40,509 nucleotides of DNA from a virus. A program made the translations under genes and the position numbers. The notes beneath the pieces are model-generated. The model saw only the letters and a list, made by a program, of their open reading frames with translations. It did not search any database and was not told where the DNA came from. The DNA lies in the IMG/VR virus record IMGVR_UViG_3300010271_000004, positions 1-40,509 of that record; one strand, 5' to 3'. Below, piece by piece: positions 3,956 to 32,400 of this stretch. Position 1 is the first letter of the stretch, and each line of letters starts with the position of its first letter.

Positions 3956-4546
3956 CTATAATTTTCTTATATTTGCTTTTTCTAATATGGATTGGAAGGT
4001 GCTACTGTTCCCTTCCGTACCTTTACCTTCTCTGCCCTTAGACGAGTTTCCTAGGCTTCCACCAGTTCCAGTTGGACCTGACTCACCAAATAGGTACTCG
4101 TCTGATTCTTTAAGTGCATTAATAGCAGTTTCTAAGTCTTTGTCAATATTCTTGCTGGTTTTTAACGCCTCAATATCAAGTAATGCTTTTGCAGCCTTCA
4201 CATTCTTTGCTCCGGCTTTATTAAGTGCATTCTCCAATGAATGTTCAAATTTTAAAGCTTCAATTTCTTCTTTAGCCTTTTTCTGCGCCTGTTCAAACTT
4301 AACTTTATACTCTTCAGCGGCCCTCTTAATTCCTTCAATATCCATAGTTTTATAAGATTCTATTTCTTTGTTGGCCGTCTCCAATTGCCCTTGCAAGGTT
4401 TCAATCTCTTTTTTCTTTGTTTCCAACTCCTTTTCCTTGACATCCAACTCTGTCTTAAATTTTTCAATGTCTTTACCATTCTCAGCCATTATTTTGTCTA
4501 TCTGTTCATCAGTAAGACCTAATTCTTTTAAAAATTCTCTTTTCAT
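3956..4546 (-). CDS. Scaffolding protein (GP20-like)
   Basis: MKREFLKELGLTDEQIDKIMAENGKDIEKFK... followed by a long charged coiled coil. This is a typical Firmicute phage scaffold N-terminus, and the RBS AGGAGG is strong. Confidence 0.8.
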   Translation of the reverse strand: MKREFLKELGLTDEQIDKIMAENGKDIEKFKTELDVKEKELETKKKEIETLQGQLETANKEIESYKTMDIEGIKRAAEEYKVKFEQAQKKAKEEIEALKFEHSLENALNKAGAKNVKAAKALLDIEALKTSKNIDKDLETAINALKESDEYLFGESGPTGTGGSLGNSSKGREGKGTEGNSSTFQSILEKANIRKL

Positions 4547-4559
4547 TCTGAATACCTCC

Positions 4560-4721
4560 TAATAATCTACGCTTTTTACGTGGTTGCTTCACGTGATTTG
4601 CCACTATATCGTCATGGCTTACGAAATTAAGCAGTTTAATGCCTTACTCAGGGCATAAAAATAAGACCTTAACCCTGGTCTTAAGGGAGATACTAGGATC
4701 ACCTCCTAAATTAAGCATAAT
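4560..4721 (-). promoter_or_regulatory. Structured untranslated leader upstream of the scaffold/capsid genes
   Basis: About 160 nt with no ORF. The minus strand shows four hairpins: GGAGGUG/UAUCUCC, AAGACC/GGUCUU, AUGCC/GGCAU and ACGUG/CACGU. It also carries the 12-mer AGGAGGTGATCC (4707..4696) with no start codon after it. Confidence 0.5.
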
Positions 4722-21875: not shown

Positions 21876-22053
21876 CTATTTCAATTCGTTCTAAAGCAAA
21901 ATCTAATACCATAGAAATTATCTTGTGTGGAGGTAAACCCGTCTGCTCTTTTAAGTCCATTATTTTTTCATAACTTTCGATAGAAATCGTTATAGGTTTC
22001 CACCCTCTCGGTTTATCCTCTTTCTGTACATGAATGACTAATTTATCTTGCAT
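21862..22053 (-). CDS. Hypothetical small protein (possible ribbon-helix-helix)
   Basis: 63-aa ORF in the early operon. The RHH assignment is only an impression from the segment PITISIESYEKIMDLKEQTG. Confidence 0.4.
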   Translation of the reverse strand: MQDKLVIHVQKEDKPRGWKPITISIESYEKIMDLKEQTGLPPHKIISMVLDFALERIEIVEKS

Positions 22054-22132
22054 TATTAAATCCCCCTTATTCTTTATTAATTAAATCTCTCCCTCAGTGC
22101 TGGTTTTGTCTAACCCATCCTATCACACCTCC

Positions 22133-22375
22133 TTATGCTGTTTCCTTATTATCCATATCATTACATGACATTTTGTCGGGTGCATAATCAAAAAAAATTT
22201 CATCAACTGTAGTACCATACATATCCGCAATTTTTTTTGCTAAATTAAAACCAGGTGTTCTTACTCCTCTCTCAAGCATAGATAGATAATCAACTGAAAT
22301 ATCTAAAATATCTGCTACTTCTTTTTGAGTTAACCCCTCTTTTTTTCTAAATGCTTTCAGGTTATTTTTCTTCAT
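22133..22375 (-). CDS. cro: Cro-like XRE-family HTH regulator
   Basis: LTQKEVADILDISVDYLSMLERGVRTP is an XRE HTH. The gene is divergent from the CI-like gene, with RBS GGAGGTG. Confidence 0.8.
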   Translation of the reverse strand: MKKNNLKAFRKKEGLTQKEVADILDISVDYLSMLERGVRTPGFNLAKKIADMYGTTVDEIFFDYAPDKMSCNDMDNKETA

Positions 22376-22392
22376 TAGATCACCTCCAAGCA

Positions 22393-22506
22393 GTACAATT
22401 TGTCATGTCACATTTTTATATTATCGTACATTTTGTCGTTTGTCAATATATTTTTTAAATTTTTATGACGTTTTGTACGATATATTTATTATACGTACAA
22501 ATTGTT
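22393..22506. promoter_or_regulatory. Genetic switch: four 12-bp operator-like sites and divergent promoters
   Basis: The sites are GTACAATTTGTC (22393), GTACATTTTGTC (22426), GACGTTTTGTAC (22467, inverted) and GTACAAATTGTT (22495). The minus-strand promoter has TTGACA (22446..22441), a 17-nt spacer and TAATAT (22423..22418). A plus-strand TATAAT lies at 22508..22513. Confidence 0.7.
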
Positions 22507-22532
22507 ATATAATTAGAAAGGAGGGAAACAAA

Positions 22533-22901
22533 ATGTCATATTCTATTGGAAAACGTTTAAAACAATTAAGAGAAGAATCTGGATTGCAACAAAAAGATAT
22601 TGCAAAAGTGTTAGGGGTTACTGAAAGTGCCATTGGACATTATGAACGTGGGGCTAGAAATTTAGACCCTGAATCGATTAAAAAACTTGCCGATTTCTTT
22701 GGGGTATCAAGTGATTATTTGCTTGGCCGTACAAACATACGAGAACCCATAACTCCTACATCAGATGATGAAGTAAATGAAATATTGGAAAGTTTACACA
22801 AACGGCCTGAAATGAAAGTGTTATTCAGTATATCTAAAAAGGCTTCCAAAGAAGATATTGAAATAGCCGTTAAAATTATTGAGGCGCTTAAGGGGGATTA
22901 A
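22533..22901 (+). CDS. CI-like XRE-family repressor
   Basis: The start is refined to ATG 22533 after AAAGGAGGG. LQQKDIAKVLGVTESAIGHYERGARNL is an XRE HTH, and a C-terminal domain is present. Confidence 0.8.
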   Translation: MSYSIGKRLKQLREESGLQQKDIAKVLGVTESAIGHYERGARNLDPESIKKLADFFGVSSDYLLGRTNIREPITPTSDDEVNEILESLHKRPEMKVLFSISKKASKEDIEIAVKIIEALKGD

Positions 22902-22907
22902 GACACC

Positions 22908-23141
22908 ATGGATAAGATTGTAAGACTCATTAAACTACCATCAACAGTCAGAGGCATGACTGTTATGGATAGTGATGGGAATTACAATATTTACATCAAT
23001 AAAAACTTAAGTTATGAAATGCAAAGAGAAGCGTATCAACACGAAATGGCTCATATTGAAGAAGACGACTTTAGCAGTAATTCGTCTGTTGCAGTATTAG
23101 AAAACAGAATAAAATATAAAATAAAACGAAAGGATGATTGA
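22908..23141 (+). CDS. ImmA/IrrE-like zinc metallopeptidase (short form)
   Basis: It has an HEMAH (HExxH) motif and lies immediately downstream of the XRE repressor, as in ImmR/ImmA pairs. Confidence 0.65.
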   Translation: MDKIVRLIKLPSTVRGMTVMDSDGNYNIYINKNLSYEMQREAYQHEMAHIEEDDFSSNSSVAVLENRIKYKIKRKDD

Positions 23142-23427
23142 AATGGAAAACATTTTAAAGGAAATTTTAACCGAAGTTAAAGGAATCAAAAGTGAATTGA
23201 AAGAGGTTAAAGAAAAAGTTACAAATTTAGAAAAAGGACAAAATGAATTAAAAGTTGCTATAAACAACATTAATGACCGTCTTGATGATATGGACGGAAG
23301 AAATGCTAATAATCATCTTGAAATTAGAACAAAACTTGAAGAAATGAGCAACATAAACAACTCTTTAGCTGAGATGTATGGACAACATGAAGTAGAGATT
23401 CGTTCATTAAAACGCAGACCGGTATAA
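23134..23427 (+). CDS. Hypothetical coiled-coil protein
   Basis: 97-aa heptad-rich ORF. An alternative ATG lies at 23143. Confidence 0.5.
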   Translation: MIEMENILKEILTEVKGIKSELKEVKEKVTNLEKGQNELKVAINNINDRLDDMDGRNANNHLEIRTKLEEMSNINNSLAEMYGQHEVEIRSLKRRPV

Positions 23428-23439
23428 TAATATATCCTT

Positions 23440-23461
23440 TATATCATTTAAACATGATATA
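23440..23461. promoter_or_regulatory. Perfect palindrome TATATCAT-N6-ATGATATA upstream of the accessory operon
   Basis: Seen directly in the sequence, 24 nt upstream of ATG 23485. Confidence 0.5.
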
Positions 23462-23484
23462 CAAGTTGCAAGGAGAGTGTATAA

Positions 23485-24012
23485 ATGACAACTTATGAGA
23501 ACATCAATGATCAAGAGCTTAAAATAGCAAAAATATTGATTCAAATATTAAATACTTCCGAAAGGGATACATCTAAAATATCATATAATCAAACAAAAAC
23601 ATATTTAAGTGTATTATTTTATAATATTCCATGTATGAGAATTAAAAATGGGAAAAAAACAAAATTTATATCAATAAAAAATTACTTAAATTACACTCTT
23701 AAACTATGTAATAATATCAATTTTGTAGTCGGTAAGGATGGTTGGAGTAGGATTGATTTAGAAAATGAAATGGATGTATTGCAATTATCCCAACCTATTT
23801 TAGAGATATATGACTATTGTTATGCAAAATCATCTGGAGAATTATTCGGATGTTGTCATCGATATGTTGAATGTTCAGATAAAAGAAAATGTATAATAGA
23901 AGACAACCCATTATCAAAAGGTTGCATTTACAGACAAAATCTTATTAATGGAAAAATCTTTTATGGGAAAAATGCGAACCACGAAAAGGTGGTATCAAAT
24001 AATGTTGTTTGA
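23485..24012 (+). CDS. Orphan Cys-rich protein (175 aa)
   Basis: RBS AAGGAGAG. I recognise no family. The C-terminal cluster is FGCCHRYVECSDKRKC...GC. The stop overlaps the start of the next gene. Confidence 0.6.
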   Translation: MTTYENINDQELKIAKILIQILNTSERDTSKISYNQTKTYLSVLFYNIPCMRIKNGKKTKFISIKNYLNYTLKLCNNINFVVGKDGWSRIDLENEMDVLQLSQPILEIYDYCYAKSSGELFGCCHRYVECSDKRKCIIEDNPLSKGCIYRQNLINGKIFYGKNANHEKVVSNNVV

Positions 24013-24937
24013 TTTCGTTGCTATAGATTTTGAAACAGCTAATTCAAATTTTAACAGTGCATGTTCTATCGGCATTGCAGCAGTATCAAATGGCAAAATT
24101 GAAAAGACGGAATACTTTTTAATTCGTCCACCATCATTACAATTTAATAATAAAAATATTGAAATTAATGGTATAACTCCTGAAGATGTTAAGGACGCAC
24201 CATTTTTTTATGAAGTTTGGGGAAAAATCAAACATTATTTTTATAATAATATAATTGTCGCACATAATGCAATATTTGATATGACAATATTAAAAACTTG
24301 TTTATTAGAATATGAAATCGATATGCCAAATTTTACTTATCTATGTAGTATGCAATTATGCAACGCTATACATTTTGACAATTGTGTTGGAAACTCATTA
24401 AAAGATAAAGCTGAGTATTTTAATATCGAACTACCAAATCATCATAATGCTTTATGTGATGCAATAACATGTGCAAAATTAGTTATAGCTCTTCTTGATG
24501 AAATAAAAAAAGGAAACTTAAAACAAACAGATTTTAATAATTATATTACGCTATATTCCTTCTCTAATGTAAAACCTCAAAAATCTTTCCAAAAAAGTCG
24601 AAGAAAAGATTTTAAAAAAGTACTCATCTCAGAAATTAGACCCTCAAGCAACAATTTTGATAGATCTAACTTCTTCTATAATAAAAATGTTGTTTTTACC
24701 GGTGAACTTAAAACGTTAGACCGTAGAGAAGCTATGCAAAAAGTTGTAGACCGTGGTGGCATAATAAAAAGCTCTGTTTCTTCTAAGACAGATTGCCTTA
24801 TAGTTGGTATACAGGATAAATCTATTGTTGGTGAAGAAGGAATGAGTACAAAACAGAAAAAAGCATATGAGTTAAAAGCAAAAGGATATAACATAAAAAT
24901 TATTTTTGAAGATGAGTTCATTGACTTATTAGGATAA
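24002..24937 (+). CDS. DnaQ-like DEDDh 3'-5' exonuclease fused to a C-terminal BRCT domain
   Basis: Exo I is AIDFET, Exo II is VAHNAIFD and Exo III is HHNALCDA. The BRCT-like part is NVVFTGELKTLDRREAMQKVVDRGGIIKSSVSSKTDCLIVG. The start is refined to ATG 24002 after AAAGGTGG. Confidence 0.75.
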   Translation: MLFDFVAIDFETANSNFNSACSIGIAAVSNGKIEKTEYFLIRPPSLQFNNKNIEINGITPEDVKDAPFFYEVWGKIKHYFYNNIIVAHNAIFDMTILKTCLLEYEIDMPNFTYLCSMQLCNAIHFDNCVGNSLKDKAEYFNIELPNHHNALCDAITCAKLVIALLDEIKKGNLKQTDFNNYITLYSFSNVKPQKSFQKSRRKDFKKVLISEIRPSSNNFDRSNFFYNKNVVFTGELKTLDRREAMQKVVDRGGIIKSSVSSKTDCLIVGIQDKSIVGEEGMSTKQKKAYELKAKGYNIKIIFEDEFIDLLG

Positions 24938-25027
24938 GATGCCATCCTGTATAATCAAAATTAAAAACAAAAACTTTAAACTACGGAATGGTTATTGATA
25001 TTTATTATTAGAAAGGAGTGATTACAA

Positions 25028-26125
25028 ATGAAAATCAGCAAACATGCCAGGGGGAATTACTACACCACATTCAAGGGAAAGTTCATCTACGGATCAACCC
25101 CTGAGGAAGTGAAGGAAAAATACGACGAGCTGAAATACCAATATCGGCAAGGGTACAACGTCGACAAGAACCCCACACTGGAAGACTATATGATTCTGTG
25201 GTATAACACTCATAAAAAGGGCCAGGGCGCACTGAAAACCCAGGAGATGTACCGGAACTGTATAAACAACCACATCAACCCGGCCTTAGGTCACAAACGG
25301 TTGAAGGAAATAACCGCTACCCAGGTTCAGGCGTTGCTGAACAGTATAACGAGTTCTAAAAGCCTTGCCCATAAGGTGCGGATCACCCTGAACCAAATAT
25401 TTAAGCAGGCCATGGCTGACAGGCTGGTTAATTTCAACCCGGTGCAGGCCTGCAAGGTGATAGCGCCGGACAAGCCTAAGCGCGAATTCCTTTCTGGCGC
25501 ACAAAGAGAGAAACTGCTTGAAATTCTGAAAGACAATAGGCTATATCCACTCATATACACCATGCTTTATACCGGTATGCGTCAGGGTGAAGCTCTGGCG
25601 CTCACCTGGTCTGACATTGATTTTGAAAACAAACGTATAATTGTTTCAAAAGCCATTGAATACGAAAAATCAAAGTCAAGAACCAAAGATCCAAAGACAG
25701 AAAGAGGTTTCCGGCAAATACCTATACCGGAAGAACTTGCGGAATATCTCCAGGAGTACAAAAAGAAAACCAAAAGCATATATGTATTTCCCGGCCATGC
25801 CGGAGGCTTGATGGGGCTAACGGAACTAAATAACCATTGGCGGAAGGCGCAAAAGAAAATTAAAAAATGGTTTGAAAACAACCCAGATGCCGGCATCGAA
25901 CCTTTCAATCTTACCTGCAGGTTACTACGTCACACATATTGCACCGGTCTGTTTGATGCAGAGATAGACGAAGTTTCCGCAGCCGAAATAATGGGGCACG
26001 ATGTTAGTATCATGCGGGAGGTTTATACTCACATTTCAGATGAAAGAAAAAAGGCAACTGTTGAAAAAATTGAAGCGTTGTATAAGACAAAAAAGCAATC
26101 AAAAAAAGAGGCAGCGTCAAAATAA
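25028..26125 (+). CDS. int: Tyrosine integrase
   Basis: ...TGMRQGEALALTWSDID..., ...LLRHTYCTGL... and ...GHDVSIMREVYTH match the R...HxxR...Y catalytic pattern of phage integrases. Confidence 0.9.
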   Translation: MKISKHARGNYYTTFKGKFIYGSTPEEVKEKYDELKYQYRQGYNVDKNPTLEDYMILWYNTHKKGQGALKTQEMYRNCINNHINPALGHKRLKEITATQVQALLNSITSSKSLAHKVRITLNQIFKQAMADRLVNFNPVQACKVIAPDKPKREFLSGAQREKLLEILKDNRLYPLIYTMLYTGMRQGEALALTWSDIDFENKRIIVSKAIEYEKSKSRTKDPKTERGFRQIPIPEELAEYLQEYKKKTKSIYVFPGHAGGLMGLTELNNHWRKAQKKIKKWFENNPDAGIEPFNLTCRLLRHTYCTGLFDAEIDEVSAAEIMGHDVSIMREVYTHISDERKKATVEKIEALYKTKKQSKKEAASK

Positions 26126-26175
26126 TTTCACAATATTTTTCACAACATTTCACAAGATTTTTAAGAATTTCACAA
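26126..26175 (+). repeat. Arm-type repeats TTTCACAA x4 (P arm)
   Basis: Copies lie at 26126, 26138, 26148 and 26168, all in the same orientation. Confidence 0.7.
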
Positions 26176-26225
26176 CACGTTTTAATGTTTTTAAACACTT
26201 CAATTTGTTTTTTTTTCTAAAGAAC

Positions 26226-26250
26226 AAAACCGCCCAATTAAGGCGGTTTT
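26226..26250 (+). terminator. Intrinsic terminator after int
   Basis: AAAACCGCC-caattaa-GGCGGTTTT. Confidence 0.65.
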
Positions 26251-26264
26251 CTAAGATTTCTATC

Positions 26265-26311
26265 TGGTACACCATCAGGGACTCGAACCCTGGACACCCT
26301 GATTAAGAGTC
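26265..26311 (-). other. attP core: 3' portion (anticodon loop to CCA) of a tRNA-Lys(CUU)
   Basis: The minus strand reads GACTCTTAATCAGGGTGTCCAGGGTTCGAGTCCCTGATGGTGTACCA. That gives anticodon loop CTCTTAA, T-arm CAGGG-TTCGAGT-CCCTG, a 3' acceptor strand and CCA. There is no D-arm or 5' acceptor strand upstream. Confidence 0.8.
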
Positions 26312-26374
26312 AAAAAAGTTAAAAATCCTTGTAAGTATTGATACTACTGGTATTAACGCTATTTTTAATAAATG

Positions 26375-26394
26375 TTTCACAACCTTTTTCACAA
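26375..26394 (+). repeat. Arm-type repeats TTTCACAA x2 (P' arm)
   Basis: Copies lie at 26375 and 26387, in the same orientation as the four copies left of the core. Confidence 0.65.
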
Positions 26395-26480
26395 CTTTTT
26401 TAAATTTTAAATGATATTTGATAGCTTGTTATAACATCCTAAAAAATAAACCCGAACCTTCCGGGGAATTTTTACATCAG

Positions 26481-26510
26481 AAAAAATAAAGGGCAGCCGA
26501 AGCCGCCCTT
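26481..26510 (-). terminator. Intrinsic terminator after the endolysin gene
   Basis: The minus strand reads AAGGGCGGC-UUCG-GCUGCCCUU followed by UAUUUUUU. Confidence 0.75.
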
Positions 26511-27225: not shown

Positions 27226-27695
27226 TTCTGTACACCTTCTTTCGTTTCCCCTTGCTGCTCAACCATTTTACCGATAACGGCTAAAGCAGAGAGTAAAAAT
27301 TTAGGAAGTGGAACGCCTATTTTTGCTAAGTTTTCAAGTATAGATACCCATTCGTTAATTATTAGCCATACCGTAACCAACACACCAAAAAAAGCCGGTA
27401 TATTAACCCGTAATTCTATGCTATTGGCTAAATATTGTATTATATAATCTAGTCCAAAACCTACAGCAACAGCTATTCCGTAACACAGCTTTTTTATTAT
27501 CCCATGCCACCCTTTTCTGGATGATAACTCTCCATTAATTCCTGCAGCAATCATTCCAGTTGTATAGTCTCCTATAAGACTTAGAAACAAAATTACAAAT
27601 ATAGGTATGTAAGCATTTATTGATGCTAATATAGTAGCAGTTAAGAACGAAATAATTGCTTTTGATGATGTATACGTATTATCCGTCATTAACAT
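27222..27695 (-). CDS. Holin (phage_holin_4 / TcdE-like class)
   Basis: 157 aa with three or more hydrophobic segments. It lies immediately upstream of the amidase and overlaps it. Confidence 0.75.
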   Translation of the reverse strand: MLMTDNTYTSSKAIISFLTATILASINAYIPIFVILFLSLIGDYTTGMIAAGINGELSSRKGWHGIIKKLCYGIAVAVGFGLDYIIQYLANSIELRVNIPAFFGVLVTVWLIINEWVSILENLAKIGVPLPKFLLSALAVIGKMVEQQGETKEGVQK

Positions 27696-27801
27696 TCATC
27701 CTTTCGTATAAAAATTAAACAGGAGCGAAATAAATCACTCCTGCAATGTTTAACTATTTAACTACACTTTATTATTGTCGGACTATAATCCTATTATGAA
27801 T

Positions 27802-27826
27802 TAAAAAAGAGAGGTTTATCCTCTCT
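27802..27826 (-). terminator. Intrinsic terminator retained behind the acetyltransferase remnant
   Basis: The minus strand reads AGAGAGG-ataaa-CCTCTCT followed by TTTTTT. The stem overlaps the TAG stop codon. Confidence 0.7.
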
Positions 27827-27903
27827 ATAAAGACCATTCAATATTTTCTTTAATTATCTTAGCAGGATTTCCTGCTACCACACTATTTGGCGGAACATCC
27901 TTT
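27825..27903 (-). pseudogene. Hexapeptide-repeat O-acetyltransferase, C-terminal remnant
   Basis: It translates to KDVPPNSVVAGNPAKIIKENIEWSL*, the characteristic C-terminus of Maa/LacA-type acetyltransferases. Confidence 0.7.
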
Positions 27904-28111
27904 CTGAAACTCTGCGTGGCTAAAGCCAGCAGGTTCTAACGTACTTTCCAACTTCTGCACTAACCCGAAAGTATAGTGCCACTAATTGGTTTCCGTTAGA
28001 CTTTTACTACCAATTGTTCCTACGAACAAATTAACGGTAGTTTAGGCTCGTTTCAAAACCTGTCTTCATCCCAACGACTAAAGTCGTAGGCTTTCGGCTA
28101 AGTTTTTTGTA
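27904..28111 (-). other. 208-nt non-coding, highly structured insert separating the two acetyltransferase fragments
   Basis: There is no ORF. Local hairpins are 28087-83/28078-74, 28029-24/28019-14, 27979-74/27962-57 and 27932-25/27920-12. Long-range complements are CAGGUU 28062-57 with AACCUG 27935-30, and CCGUUA 28037-32 with UAACGG 27998-93. Confidence 0.5.
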
Positions 28112-28197
28112 ACGCCTTTCAGTATTGTTACTCTACTTCCAATCCAAACCTTATTTCCTATTTTGATTGGTCTTGTAGAATTTTTAATATTTAGCAA
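28112..28197 (-). pseudogene. Hexapeptide-repeat O-acetyltransferase, internal remnant
   Basis: It translates to ...NSTRPIKIGNKVWIGSRVTILKGV, a left-handed beta-helix hexapeptide pattern. No N-terminal two-thirds of the gene and no credible start are present. Confidence 0.65.
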
Positions 28198-29002
28198 TCA
28201 ACAAGATTGTAAAATGTGTTTCATTTGGTAACGTATTTAGTTGTGCTGGTGTTGTAAGGTTATCTGTTGGATAAAATGAGATTCTTGCTTTATTATTAAA
28301 CGAATATGAACACCTTGCAATATAATTATTGCTGATTGCATAGTATTCTTGCGATACAATTGCCCCAGCTCTTAAAGATGGATGAAGTGGTGATGTAAAT
28401 GTAACTTCCAATTCTGTTGAAGAATATTGGGAAATAGTACAATTATCATAGTAAAAATCTGTTCTCACTTCCCAGTTTCCCGCATTTTTTCTTATCGTTG
28501 CTGTTCTTATATCTGTTGATTTTTGTTGTTCTTGTGATAAAACTTCGATTCTTATATTACGAATCTTAAATTCACCAACGTCTGATGTCCATATCCCCGC
28601 AGTAACTCTATGATATTTATTTTCCCTTACAACAAATTTCATAGTTACTTTTTCCCATTCATTAGTCTTTTGTGATGATACATGTCCTGCATTTGTATAT
28701 TCATTTAAATTATTTGTTGAAGAATTATCTACAGCAATTTTTGCCATAGTTCCACTTATGTTATATACTTCCATTGATACATTAATAATATCTCCAACTC
28801 TTAAAAATCCTAAATTTTCTAATACATATCCCTGCATAGTATTATCAACATTTATTTGTGCTGACATTGTTGTATCATCATAAGTCCATTGATTTACAGC
28901 GAGTGGTAAAGACGAAACATAATAAGGTTTTAAGGTAGGAAAAATATTTGCGTTAAAATCATCTTTGGTTAATACAGCATAATATTTTCTATCATAAAGC
29001 AT
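28184..29002 (-). CDS. Tail fibre-associated / receptor-binding accessory protein (hypothetical)
   Basis: 272-aa beta-rich ORF following the large fibre gene. The call rests on synteny only. Confidence 0.5.
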   Translation of the reverse strand: MLYDRKYYAVLTKDDFNANIFPTLKPYYVSSLPLAVNQWTYDDTTMSAQINVDNTMQGYVLENLGFLRVGDIINVSMEVYNISGTMAKIAVDNSSTNNLNEYTNAGHVSSQKTNEWEKVTMKFVVRENKYHRVTAGIWTSDVGEFKIRNIRIEVLSQEQQKSTDIRTATIRKNAGNWEVRTDFYYDNCTISQYSSTELEVTFTSPLHPSLRAGAIVSQEYYAISNNYIARCSYSFNNKARISFYPTDNLTTPAQLNTLPNETHFTILLIAKY

Positions 29003-29016
29003 ATAAAATCACCTCC

Positions 29017-32000
29017 TTAACCACACAATATATTACTCGTTATAAAGTCTATTCCGTTTGTTTCTAATGTTTTTGCTGTATTAAAATTATCAACTGTCCA
29101 TGTGTTAATTAAAATACCATTACTATGGCATAACTCTATATTTTCTTTTGTTGCTGATGTGTAATAAGTATCCATCATTGCATTACCAAGCGATTTTACA
29201 AAATTTAAATCATCTATTGTCATAGAAGATGTTACAAGCTGTAATACTATTTTTTTACTTCTATTTCTAACCTCTGTTAATGCTGTTCTGTTAAAAGAAA
29301 TAATAATAGCCTTAGTTTCAAAGTCTAACTTTTTCAAAAGATTTATTAGCGAATCATAGTCTGATGTGTTATTTGCTGCTTTAATTCCTATGACAGGAAC
29401 CATACCCCATTTTTTACATACATATAAATATTCTTCCAAAGTCGGTATTTTCAGATTTGGATAAAGTGAAATATTGTTACCCGCATCTATTGTTAAACTT
29501 TTTAATTCTGCAAGTGTTTTATCTGATACTTTACCAGTTCCATTTGTCATTCTATCTACTGTGTCATCATGGTGTAATACCCAAACTCCATCTTTTGAAG
29601 TATAAATATCACATTCGACCCCCCAAAATCCTAATTCTCCAGCTAATTCATATGAAGGTAAAGTATTTTCTGGTGCTATTAAACTTGCACCCCTATGACC
29701 TATATATTTAACTTTACCTATTGGATTTTGGCTTTGAACATAATTCACACTATCTGCCAAGTCCGCAGTAACATTATCAATTCTATTACTATTACTCTGA
29801 ACTCTCAAATCTACATTATCAACCTTATTCTGTATTTCACTCTTAGCCTTGACTAAATCTTCTAATGTTGTACGACTGTTTAAAGGTGCCTTAATACTAA
29901 CCGTGGGCTGTGTACTATCTTTAGTTGTTTTGTATGCGTACCAAATCAAGTCTCCCTCAACTGCATATGTACTGGTAAAACCAAGTCCATCTGCTGCAAC
30001 TGTACACGTATCAGTTATATCAATTTCATAACCTGTTTCTTTATCAGTCCATATGACTGTTTCTAGTTTCTGTATCGGATTGTTTATATCAGCTATTTGT
30101 ATGCCGTTTACCTCGTCATAGAAATCAAAGTCATGTACGATACCTGTTTCAACGATTATTGTACCATTTGGATAGCTGTCAAGGTGTCCGACAACAGTTG
30201 CAGGCCGCACAACGGGATTCAATAATTGATAATTTAACGAAGTTGTACCAAGCCCTGTCCTTGCTGCTGATATATCAGCATAAGTACCTTTATCAACAAT
30301 AATCCATAGAGTTTTATCTGTATGCCAATAATACTTACCTACGCTTGTTTCAAGGTCAATATCAGCCTGTGCTACTTCTATAAGCTCTATACCGTTTTTA
30401 TCATAGTATCTTGTCATGCCATCTGCGGCTGTTGTCCCTGCTTTCGCATCTGAAAATGCTGTAGTTTTAATAACATCTACATTAGTATAAGTTGTAGTAT
30501 CAATACTGTCATAAACAGTATCGCTTATTGCAGTATCATCACTAACATTTTGCTTATGGCAATACTTGCCATTAGCATCTGCGTATAATTCATCTTTAGT
30601 GCCGTTTGGCAATGAACGCATTGGCAGGATGTTTCCGTTTTCGTCTGTGGCTTTGGTGTACATGCTACCGCCAACACCGTATTCGGAATATTCTACATCT
30701 TGATTACCTTCTGTAATCATAAGTGTATCAAGTTGTATACGAACACGATAAGGTGCACTTCCATATGACAAAAAGATGTAATCTATTGATTTTCCTGCCG
30801 TACTATTAGATTTATTTGTTTGATAAGTTGTGCTATTTACTCTACCTAAAATAGAAATGCTTCCGTCCGTGTATTTAACAACAAAATGCGCAGTACTTCC
30901 AGTCACTCTCCATGTAATGTTGAATCTGTACTGTGTATTAGGCTTGAACATTCCTTTCATAAAAGGTTTATCATGTAATCTGTGGATTGTATATTCTATC
31001 ACTTCATGTCCGTTTTCTGTTGTAACATAAGCAGTATTATCATACGTTTTAACATAAGTAATAAAATCTTTTTTGTTAAATAAATTAACCGTACTTGTCA
31101 ACCTTAATGCGCCAAGTGTAGATTTAGTGCCGTCAAAATAATAAGGAAACATTTTAATCAATTCATCATCTGTTTTATTTTCAAGACTGTTTTCTGTGAT
31201 ATCTATAAGAAAAATATTATCAAAGTAATATTTTACACCAGTACCCGTATAAGAACCTACTTTACCGTAAAGTCTAATAAGCATAGCAGGTTCAGAATAT
31301 ACAGTTGATATTGTACATTTAACACATGACAAACCTGCTCCAGTAACATAATTCCCATGTTGAGCATAATAATCTCCATTAGCCTCTTTATTGAAAATTG
31401 ATATTCTGCCACCATTTTTTACAGATGTGATTGCAAAATATGTATGACCTACAATTGGTTTAAAATATGTTTGTTGTACATAATGCTCTGACGTAACTGT
31501 GTTTTCCGTAAATTCTAATTGTCCATTAATAACTGCAATACTACCTTGTGAGGCTAACCAACCTGTAGAATCATTTTCAAAACTGCCATTTTGTATTAAA
31601 TTAGTTATTGTATTCCCTTTAATACTTTCTACGCTAATTTGTCCTTTCTCAACGGTAGAAGGGAAACTGTGGATTGACGATGTGAATTCTTCTGTGAGGT
31701 ATGCATGATTGAATACTTCTTCTTCTATTTCTTCAAGCCTGTCTGTAGCTTGTGGGAATGACTTACCTCTTGCTATAGATGTTCTCATATTTATTACTTC
31801 TGCTTCTTCCTGTTGTGCTGTGGAAAGATTATCCCACATTGTTTGTATGTTTTCTCTTGCATTATTAGCATTATCTGCTGCTGTCTGTGCTTCTGTTGCT
31901 TTTTCTTCTGCCAATTGTGCTTTTTGATTGGCATTACTTGCAGCTTGGTTAGTGTCACTTATTGCTGTTGCTGTTTTTTGTATTAAGTCTGTTAGGATGG

Positions 32001-32400
32001 GATAATTAGTATCTGATACTACACCATCTCCACTGTCAAGTGCATCTCTAACTTTAAATGTAAAGTTTACACTTGTTAACCTCTCACCATCAGAGCCATA
32101 AAATTGTAATTCTGCTACAACAGTGCCAGGTACGGATATTTCGGTTGTTTTAACAAGATATGATACTTTACCGTTTGCTGCATCATCAATTGTGCATTCA
32201 GAATAAACAGGTTGCCCATCTTTTCTCTTAAATACAATAGATATTAAGCTGATATCAGATAAATCGTAAGGCTTTCTTTTTTCAACAATAGAAAAATCAA
32301 ATAGATATGCTTTAGTATCGTTGCTGACTAATACATAATCCTTGTGTTCTGTAGTATGGTCATACAAATCTATAGTAATCGGTAGTATTTTAGGTTGCAT
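29017..32400 (-). CDS. Large tail fibre/baseplate protein: BppU-like N-terminus, coiled coil, CBM-like region and C-terminal glycerophosphodiester phosphodiesterase (GDPD)
   Basis: The N-terminus MQPKILPITIDLYD...GTVVAELQFY fits BppU_N. The C-terminus YIGHRGASLIAPENTLPSYELA...WGVECDIYTSKDGVWVLHHDDTVDR carries the GDPD signature (HRG...EN...E.D...H.D). Confidence 0.8.
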   Translation of the reverse strand: MQPKILPITIDLYDHTTEHKDYVLVSNDTKAYLFDFSIVEKRKPYDLSDISLISIVFKRKDGQPVYSECTIDDAANGKVSYLVKTTEISVPGTVVAELQFYGSDGERLTSVNFTFKVRDALDSGDGVVSDTNYPILTDLIQKTATAISDTNQAASNANQKAQLAEEKATEAQTAADNANNARENIQTMWDNLSTAQQEEAEVINMRTSIARGKSFPQATDRLEEIEEEVFNHAYLTEEFTSSIHSFPSTVEKGQISVESIKGNTITNLIQNGSFENDSTGWLASQGSIAVINGQLEFTENTVTSEHYVQQTYFKPIVGHTYFAITSVKNGGRISIFNKEANGDYYAQHGNYVTGAGLSCVKCTISTVYSEPAMLIRLYGKVGSYTGTGVKYYFDNIFLIDITENSLENKTDDELIKMFPYYFDGTKSTLGALRLTSTVNLFNKKDFITYVKTYDNTAYVTTENGHEVIEYTIHRLHDKPFMKGMFKPNTQYRFNITWRVTGSTAHFVVKYTDGSISILGRVNSTTYQTNKSNSTAGKSIDYIFLSYGSAPYRVRIQLDTLMITEGNQDVEYSEYGVGGSMYTKATDENGNILPMRSLPNGTKDELYADANGKYCHKQNVSDDTAISDTVYDSIDTTTYTNVDVIKTTAFSDAKAGTTAADGMTRYYDKNGIELIEVAQADIDLETSVGKYYWHTDKTLWIIVDKGTYADISAARTGLGTTSLNYQLLNPVVRPATVVGHLDSYPNGTIIVETGIVHDFDFYDEVNGIQIADINNPIQKLETVIWTDKETGYEIDITDTCTVAADGLGFTSTYAVEGDLIWYAYKTTKDSTQPTVSIKAPLNSRTTLEDLVKAKSEIQNKVDNVDLRVQSNSNRIDNVTADLADSVNYVQSQNPIGKVKYIGHRGASLIAPENTLPSYELAGELGFWGVECDIYTSKDGVWVLHHDDTVDRMTNGTGKVSDKTLAELKSLTIDAGNNISLYPNLKIPTLEEYLYVCKKWGMVPVIGIKAANNTSDYDSLINLLKKLDFETKAIIISFNRTALTEVRNRSKKIVLQLVTSSMTIDDLNFVKSLGNAMMDTYYTSATKENIELCHSNGILINTWTVDNFNTAKTLETNGIDFITSNILCG

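Follow-up and report, generated by a model that had tools for sequence, protein, structure and literature searches.

The segment that separates two pieces of an acetyltransferase gene in this temperate phage genome is almost certainly a 205-nt non-autonomous element of the IS200/IS605 family (a PATE or MITE), lying on the minus strand of the window, i.e. the whole 40,509-nucleotide stretch of viral DNA that was analysed. It is highly probable that this MITE was derived from an IS200/IS605 parent and landed in a phage acetyltransferase gene, and this is the best explanation of the locus as a whole. The structured 3' part of the element is predicted, with good confidence, to be the scaffold of a TnpB omega-RNA (reRNA). 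This kind of element has already been described and the finding is an ordinary one, with nothing here new in kind. The features of the locus are collected in Table 1.

Table 1. Coordinates of the element, its predicted RNA and the surrounding gene remnant. LE = left end; RE = right end; IS = insertion sequence; S1 to S5 = scaffold helices.
Feature	Position in window	Strand	Basis or remark
Whole element	27904..28108	-	Positions ~1-47 + 2000-2156 of the 2156-bp parent IS
Target tetranucleotide TTAC	28109..28112	-	Abuts the left end of the element; 36/40 independent left flanks
LE	28062..28108	-	Identity to LE of full-length IS
LE bulged hairpin CCTACGAC-TTTA-GTCG(T)TGGG	28090..28070	-	Putative TnpA binding site
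AAAG	28094..28091	-	Directly 5' of the LE bulged hairpin
RE, 158 nt	27904..28061	-	blastn to parent IS; 157 nt aligned to IS 2000-2156
RE bulged hairpin CTGCTGGC-TTTA-GCCA(C)GCAG	27912..27932	-	Putative TnpA binding site; also last omega-RNA stem (UUUA loop)
Element terminus AGTTTCAG	ends at 27904	-	Right boundary
S1	28060..28045	-	Scaffold helix
S2/S2b	28040..28007	-	Scaffold helices
S3	28000..27994 paired with 27941..27935	-	Scaffold helix
S4/S4b	27989..27948	-	Scaffold helices
S5	27932..27912	-	Scaffold helix
Pseudoknot	28055..28050 (UGAAAC) paired with 27910..27905 (GUUUCA)	-	S1 loop with -7..-2
Predicted omega-RNA guide segment AAAGGAUGUUCCGCCAAAUA	27884..27903	-	Known TnpB mechanism (PMC10055086, PMC10097598)
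Acetyltransferase remnant, upstream piece PIKIGNKVWIGSRVTILKGV	28111..28170	-	Translation, Pfam Hexapep, PDB matches, relatives P0001-P0024
Acetyltransferase remnant, downstream piece KDVPPNSVVAGNPAKIIKENIEWSL and stop	27825..27902	-	Translation, PDB matches, relatives
Terminator-like hairpin AGAGAGGATAAACCTCTCT then TTTTTT	27808..27826	-	Just past the remnant stop codon

Both ends of the insert match a full-length IS of 2156 bp located at 832-2987 of locus L006. Using blastn, positions 28106-28064 of the window showed 97.7% identity to positions 3-45 of this IS and positions 28060-27904 showed 99.4% identity to its positions 2000-2156. The element has stops in all six frames and hence no coding capacity, its termini are not inverted repeats and a target-site duplication is absent. 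Neither tnpA nor tnpB was found in the window. An earlier note on this DNA had described a densely structured insert with no ORF between the acetyltransferase pieces. Both observations were borne out, no ORF being present in any frame and the insert being far more stable than shuffled sequences when folded as either strand (z of -3.7 and -3.5). The structure comprises two TnpA-type bulged hairpins and the predicted omega-RNA scaffold. A MITE-like mobile element was one of the options listed in the note and is the correct one, as the ends match a full IS and the same unit recurs in unrelated flanks. The size given for the insert, 208 nt (28111..27904), requires adjustment to a 205-nt inserted unit (28108..27904) starting after TTAC. 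Among INPHARED phages there was no match to the region (blastn) or to 24.5 kb of the window (megablast).

The tetranucleotide TTAC terminates 36 of the 40 independent left flanks of the IS family and the sequence farther upstream is unrelated. All copies have a right end reading ...GAGTTTCAG followed by unrelated sequence; insertion specificity is confined to the left side. TTAC is also the predicted TAM of the TnpB/omega-RNA complex. The hairpins of LE and RE are built alike, each with two stems of 4 bp, a loop of TTTA and one bulged pyrimidine. Covariation is seen in the RE hairpin, with compensatory variants in L013 (CTGCCGAC-TTTA-GTCG(T)GCAG) and L016. In the window copy, the LE hairpin contains a G.T pair as a result of a C>T change, and the LE/RE junction has A where other copies carry G (GAAGGCAGG). 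It is because of this difference that the window-specific junction, GATGAAGACAGGTTTTGAAACG, gave no exact matches in IMG/VR.

This organisation is familiar from IS608 of Helicobacter pylori, the element associated with Barabas, Ton-Hoang and Chandler. IS608 reportedly inserts 3' of TTAC, with AAAG just 5' of the LE hairpin. Near each end it carries an imperfect hairpin that has a bulged base; it is not known to have inverted terminal repeats or a target duplication, and tnpA (Y1) is followed by tnpB. The family of the window element has in common with it the TTAC target, AAAG, the bulged hairpins, the lack of terminal inverted repeats and duplication, and the order tnpA then tnpB. By analogy with IS608, AAAG is the putative DNA guide for TTAC. 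The two differ in that there is no sequence similarity, that the right end is TTTCAG here and TCAA in IS608, that the TnpB here has 485 aa and no zinc finger, and that the window copy is non-autonomous.

The parent IS encodes a Y1 TnpA transposase (PF01797, E 2.8e-42; NF033573, E 2e-44) and a divergent TnpB. Five full-length copies at 99% were found in one Clostridia MAG, one copy in a Tissierellaceae MAG and more in metagenomes, and the family lives in anaerobic-digester Clostridia/Tissierellaceae. The TnpB-family protein, encoded at 1361-2818 of L006, matched NF040570 over its full length (E 1.3e-22), its 80.6 bits lying below the curated NCBIfam cut-off of 100, and showed only weak matches in Pfam (HTH_OrfB_IS605 and OrfB_IS605). 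As regards a possible RuvC activity, residues D230, E337 and D432 are invariant and are found in the motifs GLDIGT, VExMN and QRDxYSA. A CxxC...CxxC zinc finger is absent, and searches of the solved structures in the PDB with the sequence and with a 4-sequence profile gave no meaningful match. Given this divergence, the score below cut-off and the absence of both a zinc finger and a PDB match, nuclease activity of this TnpB is only putative.

Further copies, which the earlier note had proposed to look for, show the 205-nt architecture in at least 10 other, unrelated flanks (L022, L057, L071, L072, L074, L082, L093, L096 and L103, plus the diverged L027, L034 (202 nt)). Other independent deletion derivatives, of 211/212, 235, 241, 278 and 323 nt, also contain the whole scaffold, and several of the independent derivatives keep it complete from S1 onward. 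Derivatives of 49-157 nt without the scaffold occur as well, indicating that the scaffold is not required for mobility. Some deletion types fuse the tnpA promoter straight to the omega-RNA, and the 205-nt type lacks its own promoter. Judging from the dozens of different flanks, the IS family is clearly active.

The earlier note had favoured a different interpretation, that of a group I intron, small and self-splicing, trapped in the remnant; a miniature IStron at this site is a related reading. Either would be spliced at U/...G/, reuniting the exons. The reading frame is indeed kept when the insert is removed, the RNA is highly structured, and IS200/IS605-based IStrons exist in Clostridia with ORF-less variants known (PMC4227781). 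However, neither Intron_gpI, RF00028 or its subgroup models, nor any other ribozyme family was matched at the gathering threshold in the window or the six parent loci, or at E<=10 in 27600..28400. In this region the Rfam scans, run at the gathering threshold on the window as a whole and at E<=10 on 27600..28400, gave only noise from Plastid-clpP and mir-9412 with E>5, and the scan of the six parent IS loci gave nothing. The fold that is supported by covariation has no P3/P7 arrangement. A hand-drawn group-I-like fold, with S3 as P7 and GGUUU/AAACC as P3, was ruled out by covariation counts. This candidate P3 shows 0 compensatory changes and breaks if one side varies. Similarly, the long-range helices CAGGUU/AACCUG and CCGUUA/UAACGG described in the note are present in the window copy, but not a single compensatory change was seen in them and their pairing is lost whenever either side varies. 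The bases involved, in the candidate P3 and in these helices, belong to S1, which covaries. In the parent IS, the left end and tnpA are only 113 nt apart, too little to accommodate an intron; it is in this interval, at the 5' end of the IS, that group A IStrons hold theirs (PMC4227781). Furthermore, the element is found identical in unrelated flanks with its ends set by TTAC and not by exon context, the supposed U and G intron boundaries being the transposon ends TTAC/ and ...TTTCAG/ that recur in dozens of unrelated flanks. The note had remarked that there was no convincing P1 or internal guide, and again no P1 was found. Even a spliced product would lack 14 residues as well as the N-terminal two-thirds of the enzyme. 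As neither the MITE nor its parent contains a group I core, splicing is not expected. The group I intron reading is thus refuted at the level of the sequence and we regard the chance of an intron or IStron here as negligible.

IStrons (CdISt1 and relatives; PMC4227781; Zedaveinyte et al., bioRxiv 10.1101/2023.11.20.567912) have several features in common with the element. In both cases a clostridial IS200/IS605-type element lies in the sense strand of a gene with the frame kept on removal, and a structured RNA gives the right end dual DNA and RNA roles. The difference lies in the MITE and its parent having no group I core, Rfam match or supported P1-P9 fold.

It is also very unlikely that the region between the fragments is a small or regulatory RNA gene belonging to the phage, or diverged coding sequence. 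Such an RNA gene would fit the strong structure predicted on both strands and a site flanked by the fibre and lysis modules, a setting in which morons and regulators are met with. Against this, the segment shows 99% identity to one end of a bacterial IS and recurs in many unrelated flanks. The proposal in the note that a phage sRNA gene had recombined into the remnant is likewise rejected. No Rfam family was matched, and promoter-like sites are no more frequent in the region than in shuffled sequences. Merely diverged acetyltransferase sequence, which the note had considered, fails on the stops in every frame and on the homology being to an IS.

The assignment of the 3' part of the element as an omega-RNA scaffold is based on its position in the parent IS and on covariation. 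In L006 the tnpB stop is at 2818 and the conserved scaffold runs from ~2831, 13 nt after the stop, to the RE boundary at 2987. The scaffold consists of 8 helices with 49 pairs, compensatory changes being seen in 18/49 and 97.9% of cells being paired. This level of covariation was reached by 0/500 shuffles, and slid controls were 27-40% paired. RNAalifold independently recovered the same nested helices. The pseudoknot UGAAAC/GUUUCA can pair in 25/25 sequences, with a single compensatory change (UGAAU/AUUCA in L016) and one G.U change (L013). Relative to the guide, the pseudoknot is at -7..-2 and the UUUA loop of the last stem is at -21..-18. By analogy with known systems, the guide is predicted to match the element-free allele TTAC/AAAGGATG....

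The gene that received the element was examined next to its relatives. As the earlier note had claimed, two pieces of acetyltransferase sequence lie on the minus strand; its coordinates for the downstream piece (27902..27825) were exact and those for the upstream piece (28176..28112, here 28170..28111) were a few bases off. The open frame of the upstream piece reaches back to 28194/28197. Joined, the 50-54 aa match Pfam Hexapep (E 2.7e-4) and, among solved structures, the C-terminal ends of O-acetyltransferases for polysialic acid, maltose and galactosides (2wlc, E 1.7e-11; 6ag8, E 4e-9). The remnant retains hexapeptide repeats and the C-terminal motif ...VVTKD[VI]PP..V.GNPAK.I, and has only ~50 residues compared with ~180-215 aa at full length. 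The closest database relative, P0001, reads ...ILKGVNIGDGSIIAANSVVTKDVPPN..., showing that 14 residues (42 nt) are missing between the pieces, in agreement with the ~14 residues of the note. The loss of the N-terminal two-thirds was also confirmed, the upstream 272-aa ORF having no Pfam family. The acetyltransferase is a pseudogene fragment and not a functional member of the hexapeptide-repeat (LbH) O-acetyltransferases. In comparison with the phage-borne polysialic-acid/O-antigen enzymes of the NeuO/OatWY type (PDB 2wlc, 3jqy) and the maltose and galactoside enzymes, its two pieces correspond to the final coils of the left-handed beta-helix plus the C-terminal tail, and it lies next to tail-fibre genes, as is typical of a phage 'moron'. 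Unlike them, it has only the ~50 C-terminal residues, without the 14 internal residues and the N-terminal two-thirds.

Removal of the 205-nt unit gives ...ILKGVTKDVPP... in frame, and the in-frame joining that the note had obtained by removing 208 nt holds equally. A retained terminator, also noted previously, corresponds to the terminator-like hairpin and T-run at 27826..27808 (minus strand); 4 terminator-like sites were found compared with 0.4 expected in shuffles. Neither an empty site nor an intact acetyltransferase allele was encountered, the right-flank 29-mer having 0 matches in IMG/VR, and there were no relatives of the neighbouring 272-aa protein in IMG/VR. Exact-protein look-ups with the 272-aa protein and the holin identified 12 related contigs from many samples, with an identical filled site in 12/12. 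With every one of these contigs filled and no element-free allele found, the insertion event itself is something that we infer. A simple insertion does not account for the 42 missing nucleotides and a separate deletion has to be assumed, possibly, as a conjecture, between the copy of GTTAC at the GVT codons and a second one at the VVT codons.

The following origin is proposed. The element would have arisen by internal deletion from the 2156-bp parent with tnpA and tnpB, retaining a left end of ~47 nt with its TnpA hairpin and the last ~157 nt, in which the right end with its TnpA hairpin would also be the complete omega-RNA scaffold. As comparison with the other copies indicates, it then inserted 3' of TTAC, without target duplication, into the coding strand of a phage acetyltransferase gene that was already dispensable, probably at the conserved VVT/KD codons (GTT AC/A AAG GAT). 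From what is known of the family, movement would be as single-stranded DNA by 'peel-and-paste', with Y1 TnpA supplied in trans from full-length copies in the host. Precise excision would leave the joint GGCGTTAC/AAAGGATG, 205 bp shorter.

The element is in the sense orientation relative to the phage late operon and upstream of the terminator, an arrangement that may produce read-through transcripts. Such transcripts would carry scaffold and flank as an omega-RNA whose guide would be the adjacent acetyltransferase sequence, with a predicted TTAC-adjoining target of TTAC-AAAGGATGTTCCGCCAAATA. Host TnpB acting in trans with this RNA would cut element-free alleles (TTAC + guide), favouring retention or copying of the element. 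This copy may currently be used in trans, though we lean slightly against it. The fuller proposal, that the mini-element is a working protein-less guide-RNA gene, expressed by late-operon read-through, loaded into host TnpB and aimed at TTAC+AAAGGATGTTCCGCC..., is improbable. If true, its targets would be alleles of this locus that lack the element, in relatives that co-infect or are resident, and could include intact acetyltransferase genes with conserved VVT/KDVPP codons. In mixed infections the element and linked phage DNA would then have an advantage of a gene-drive-like or exclusion kind.

Alternatively, the element may have the same origin and be an inert fossil, a dead passenger fixed in the phage lineage that neither moves nor gives rise to a working guide RNA and whose structure is inherited from a recent parent. 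This is a real possibility, albeit one that we somewhat doubt. The 100% identity of the filled site in all related contigs from many samples, the absence of tnpA and tnpB from the window, the loss in the 205-nt type of the tnpA promoter that some other derivatives keep, and the two changes in this copy (at the LE hairpin and the LE/RE junction) would all be consistent with it. In addition, the copies are 95-99% similar and conservation may merely reflect youth. On the other hand, everything required in cis is intact, from TTAC and AAAG through the two hairpins and the whole scaffold to the precise right end. The family is clearly active, given its dozens of different flanks, several deletion derivatives that arose independently have all kept the full scaffold from S1 on, and the orientation permits late-operon read-through.

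The tempting reading of a tiny phage intron is thereby removed and replaced by that of an IS200/IS605 mini-element with an intact predicted TnpB guide-RNA scaffold. In Firmicutes of anaerobic digesters, the analysis further reveals an IS family that had not been annotated before, together with its MITEs. The family is characterised by TTAC as target, a divergent TnpB that lacks a zinc finger, a predicted omega-RNA of 157 nt with covariation support and a putative guide-pseudoknot-stem core, and several independent deletion derivatives that keep the scaffold whole. Known PATEs often encode omega-RNAs for use in trans by the TnpB of another element (PMC10055086; Geobacillus stearothermophilus, Meers et al. 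2023), and haloarchaeal PATEs or IS200/IS605 MITEs have also been described (PMC3119063). The window element resembles them as a gene-less, multi-copy mini-element of LE + RE, often omega-RNA-encoding, with presumed mobilisation by TnpA in trans. It differs in belonging to a new sequence family from anaerobic-digester Clostridia/Tissierellaceae with several independent deletion types, some having the tnpA promoter joined to the omega-RNA, and in the location of this copy in a temperate phage genome, inside a pseudogene. The case shows that mini-transposons bearing such a predicted guide RNA ride in temperate phage genomes, which gives them one route between hosts and makes them a possible source of trans-acting guides.

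In the omega-RNA of ISDra2, for which the structure has been solved, the bases immediately preceding the guide form a pseudoknot with the 5' part of the scaffold, and at about -20..-17 there is a stem with a UUUA loop (Nakagawa et al. 2023, PMC10097598). The predicted RNA shares with it the location of the scaffold at the transposon right end downstream of tnpB, a guide formed by flanking DNA, a putative guide-pseudoknot-stem layout, a last stem with a UUUA loop ~20 nt from the guide, and a predicted TAM that is the target site. The putative scaffold is longer here (157 nt versus 116), does not overlap the tnpB ORF and shows no sequence similarity to that of ISDra2, and the predicted TAM is TTAC in place of TTGAT. 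A guide-pseudoknot-stem core is what TnpB omega-RNAs share with Cas12 guide RNAs.

Translation of the minus strand bore out the two acetyltransferase fragments around a structured insert that the earlier note had described, although the first piece is now taken from 28170 and the inserted unit is 205 nt rather than 208 nt. The joined peptide matches Pfam Hexapep and, in the PDB, the C-terminal coils of polysialic-acid, maltose and galactoside O-acetyltransferases (2wlc, E 1.7e-11; 6ag8, E 4e-9). P0001, the nearest relative in the database, reads ...ILKGVNIGDGSIIAANSVVTKDVPPN... across the same stretch and its alignment indicates that 14 residues are absent between the pieces. As the 272-aa ORF upstream belongs to no Pfam family, the N-terminal two-thirds of the enzyme are absent as well, and both losses are as had been proposed. 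This ORF lies between the fibre gene and the remnant and overlaps the beginning of the remnant's open frame. The 1127-aa fibre protein has BppU_N and a C-terminal glycerophosphodiester phosphodiesterase (GDPD) domain in the precomputed Pfam annotation.

Features of the element and of the window
Feature	Position	Strand	Sequence or detail
Fibre gene	29017..32400	-	
272-aa ORF	28184..29002	-	
Upstream remnant piece	28170..28111	-	PIKIGNKVWIGSRVTILKGV
Inserted element	28108..27904	-	205 nt
Left-end hairpin			CCTACGAC-TTTA-GTCG(T)TGGG
Pseudoknot, loop of first hairpin	28055..28050	-	UGAAAC
Right-end hairpin			CTGCTGGC-TTTA-GCCA(C)GCAG
Pseudoknot, last bases of element	27910..27905	-	GUUUCA
Candidate guide (flank)	27903..~27884	-	AAAGGAUGUUCCGCCAAAUA
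Downstream remnant piece	27902..27825	-	KDVPPNSVVAGNPAKIIKENIEWSL*, stop at end
Terminator-like hairpin, 3' of remnant stop	27826..27808	-	
Lysogeny block	22000..26500	+	GC 0.28 at 23-25 kb
Integrase gene	25028..26125	+	GC 0.45
GP20-b RNA motif	4568..4626	-	36.4 bits, E 1.8e-4

The insert contains no ORF, as had been noted, with stops in all six frames, and on each strand its fold is much more stable than those of shuffled controls (z -3.7 and -3.5). It had no match among known phages. An exact 20-mer of the insert found six IMG/VR contigs, in which its 3' 110-160 nt recurs at ~98% identity amid unrelated flanks and always ends ...GAGTTTCAG. Contig L006 holds a 2156-bp element (832-2987) sharing the insert's left-end sequence and encoding a 132-aa Y1 transposase (PF01797, E 2.8e-42; NF033573, E 2e-44) and a 485-aa TnpB-family ORF (NF040570, E 1.3e-22, a full-length match that scores below the curated threshold); the conserved 3' block begins 13 nt past the tnpB stop. 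Window 28106-28064 corresponds to IS 3-45 (97.7% identity) and 28060-27904 to IS 2000-2156 (99.4%). Since both parts align to the ends of the IS, the insert is the IS minus tnpA and tnpB, and arose by internal deletion. It is thus an IS200/IS605 PATE/MITE, a gene-less derivative of a kind already known, which has kept a predicted omega-RNA and is carried by a temperate phage. The suggestion of a MITE-like mobile element is borne out by these ends and by the recurrence of the 205-nt form at many sites.

The full IS is present in five copies of 99% identity in one Clostridia MAG and also in a Tissierellaceae MAG, with relatives of 65-72% TnpB identity elsewhere. A metagenome scan with the right-end 20-mer gave 94 loci, which were classified. 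These include full-length IS copies and at least 10 further copies of the window-type 205-nt architecture (IS 1-47 + 2000-2156) with differing flanks (205 nt in L022, L057, L071, L072, L074, L082, L093, L096 and L103; a diverged 202 nt in L027 and L034). The 205-nt form has spread to many sites as part of a transposing family. Independent deletion derivatives of 211/212, 235, 241, 278 and 323 nt all keep the whole 3' block, some joining the tnpA promoter straight onto it. In L083 (241 nt), L045/L102 (235 nt) and L081 (323 nt) this promoter, TTGACA-N17-TATATT/TATAAT, sits a few bases 5' of the first omega-RNA hairpin, a layout resembling a compact promoter and guide-RNA unit without a protein gene. 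The 3' block is partly or wholly lost from derivatives of 283, 157, 108 and 49 nt. L066 (157 nt), L111 (108 nt) and L073/L026 (49 nt) keep only the left-end leader and right-end hairpin, so minimal derivatives can persist without a scaffold; the 49-nt form is a single chimeric hairpin between TTAC and a terminal ...TTTCAG.

Other arrangements were also seen. The IS in L006 is itself inserted at TTAC among the opening codons of a second TnpB-type element (L006 700..831). This second element carries the hairpin CTCCCACCTCTTTAGGTGGGAG and a TTGACA/TATAAT promoter, and its start reads VKLSFKFKPKLT up to the junction. A chimeric mini-element in L001/L003/L051 combines that other element's hairpin with the last 114 nt of the IS, and 5' of it lie ~200 nt of GC-rich, seemingly structured sequence that matches nothing in Rfam.

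Of 40 independent left flanks, 36 have TTAC directly at the junction with the element, and the sequence farther upstream is unrelated; right flanks are unrelated among copies and there is no target duplication. The family is thus specific for TTAC. Its ends do not form inverted repeats; both carry a hairpin of one common design, the left one directly preceded by AAAG and the right one showing compensatory variants in L013 and L016. The TTAC site, AAAG and non-inverted ends with like hairpins are hallmarks of IS608-type IS200/IS605 elements.

The right-end RNA fold is conserved and covarying. In an alignment of 25 non-identical right ends, a model of seven nested helices and one pseudoknot was paired in 97.9% of cells, with compensatory changes at 18 of 49 pairs; none of 500 shuffles did as well, slid-partner controls were 27-40% paired, and RNAalifold independently gave the same nested helices. 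The candidate pseudoknot, between the first-hairpin loop and the element's last bases, is paired in 25/25 sequences with one compensatory change (L016, UGAAU/AUUCA) and one G.U change (L013). The solved ISDra2 TnpB omega-RNA has nucleotides -5..-3, beside the guide, base-paired to the 5' portion of its scaffold, and its last stem is closed by a UUUA tetraloop at -20..-17 (PMC10097598). The layout predicted for the window element matches this, with its UUUA loop at -21..-18. From the covarying fold and this match, the 3' 157 nt are therefore read as a predicted TnpB omega-RNA scaffold which also serves as the transposon right end. The local hairpins of the earlier note are real, being two TnpA hairpins and the omega-RNA stems, but its two long-range complementarities show zero compensatory changes and are broken when one side varies. 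In the 211/212-nt MITEs L029 and L070 the scaffold is mosaic: the 5' half (helices S1, S2 and S2b) is L013-like with fully compensated stems and the 3' half does not differ from the window type, which suggests that omega-RNA variants, or their parent ISs, have recombined.

A group I intron had been one of the options proposed. Rfam gave no match at the insert, where Intron_gpI was absent even at E<=10, nor in the parent IS loci, and the supported fold has no P3/P7 core; a hand-tried group-I-like P3 had no compensatory change and breaks when one side varies. The element's ends are fixed, by TTAC on the left and ...CAG on the right, among unrelated flanks, and removal still leaves the acetyltransferase incomplete. 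That removal joins the pieces in frame is coincidental, resulting from 205 being 3n+1 combined with a separate 42-nt loss. Group A IStrons hold an IA2 intron between the left end and tnpA (PMC4227781), where the parent IS has only 113 nt. Both an intron and an IStron were rejected.

The partner protein (L006 1361..2818; relatives in L013, L016 and L017) is a putative TnpB nuclease. D230/E337/D432 are invariant and lie in GLDIGT, VExMN and QRDxYSA. The CxxC...CxxC zinc finger is absent from this lineage and no sequence match to solved TnpB or Cas12 structures was obtained. The lineage is unusually long (485 aa), falls under the NCBIfam TnpB cut-off and weakly matches type V C2c8 (E 6.6e-10). 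By analogy with the family (PMC10055086), the element would have moved as single-stranded DNA with TnpA given in trans, and its omega-RNA may be used in trans by the TnpB of a full-length copy. The adjoining flank would be the guide and TTAC the TAM, so that the element-free allele would be the target. The 205-nt type carries no promoter itself; read-through transcription is plausible because the late operon (fibre, 272-aa gene, remnant) runs in the same direction as the element, which lies upstream of the terminator.

Twelve contigs of this phage, drawn from several samples, gave no empty site: every one has the identical filled site, and several of them end inside the MITE. Independent metagenome assemblies of this phage (L114, L118, L119, L122 and L123) break within the element, as expected of a repeat with many copies in the same community. 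The 42 missing nt of the acetyltransferase are not accounted for by transposition. The missing segment is bounded in relatives by GV(T/N) and VVT; conjecturally, both bounds were GTTAC in the ancestor, and a short-repeat deletion, or ambiguity over the TTAC used, could then explain the gap.

Gene order suggests that the window (40.5 kb) represents the whole genome of a temperate phage in circularly permuted form, and L113 (40515 bp) matches it. The lysogeny block is of odd composition, the rest of the genome being ~0.35 GC. At gathering threshold Rfam gives a single match in the window, the GP20-b motif (gathering score 36.2), just 5' of ORF 4546..3956 in the head-morphogenesis block.
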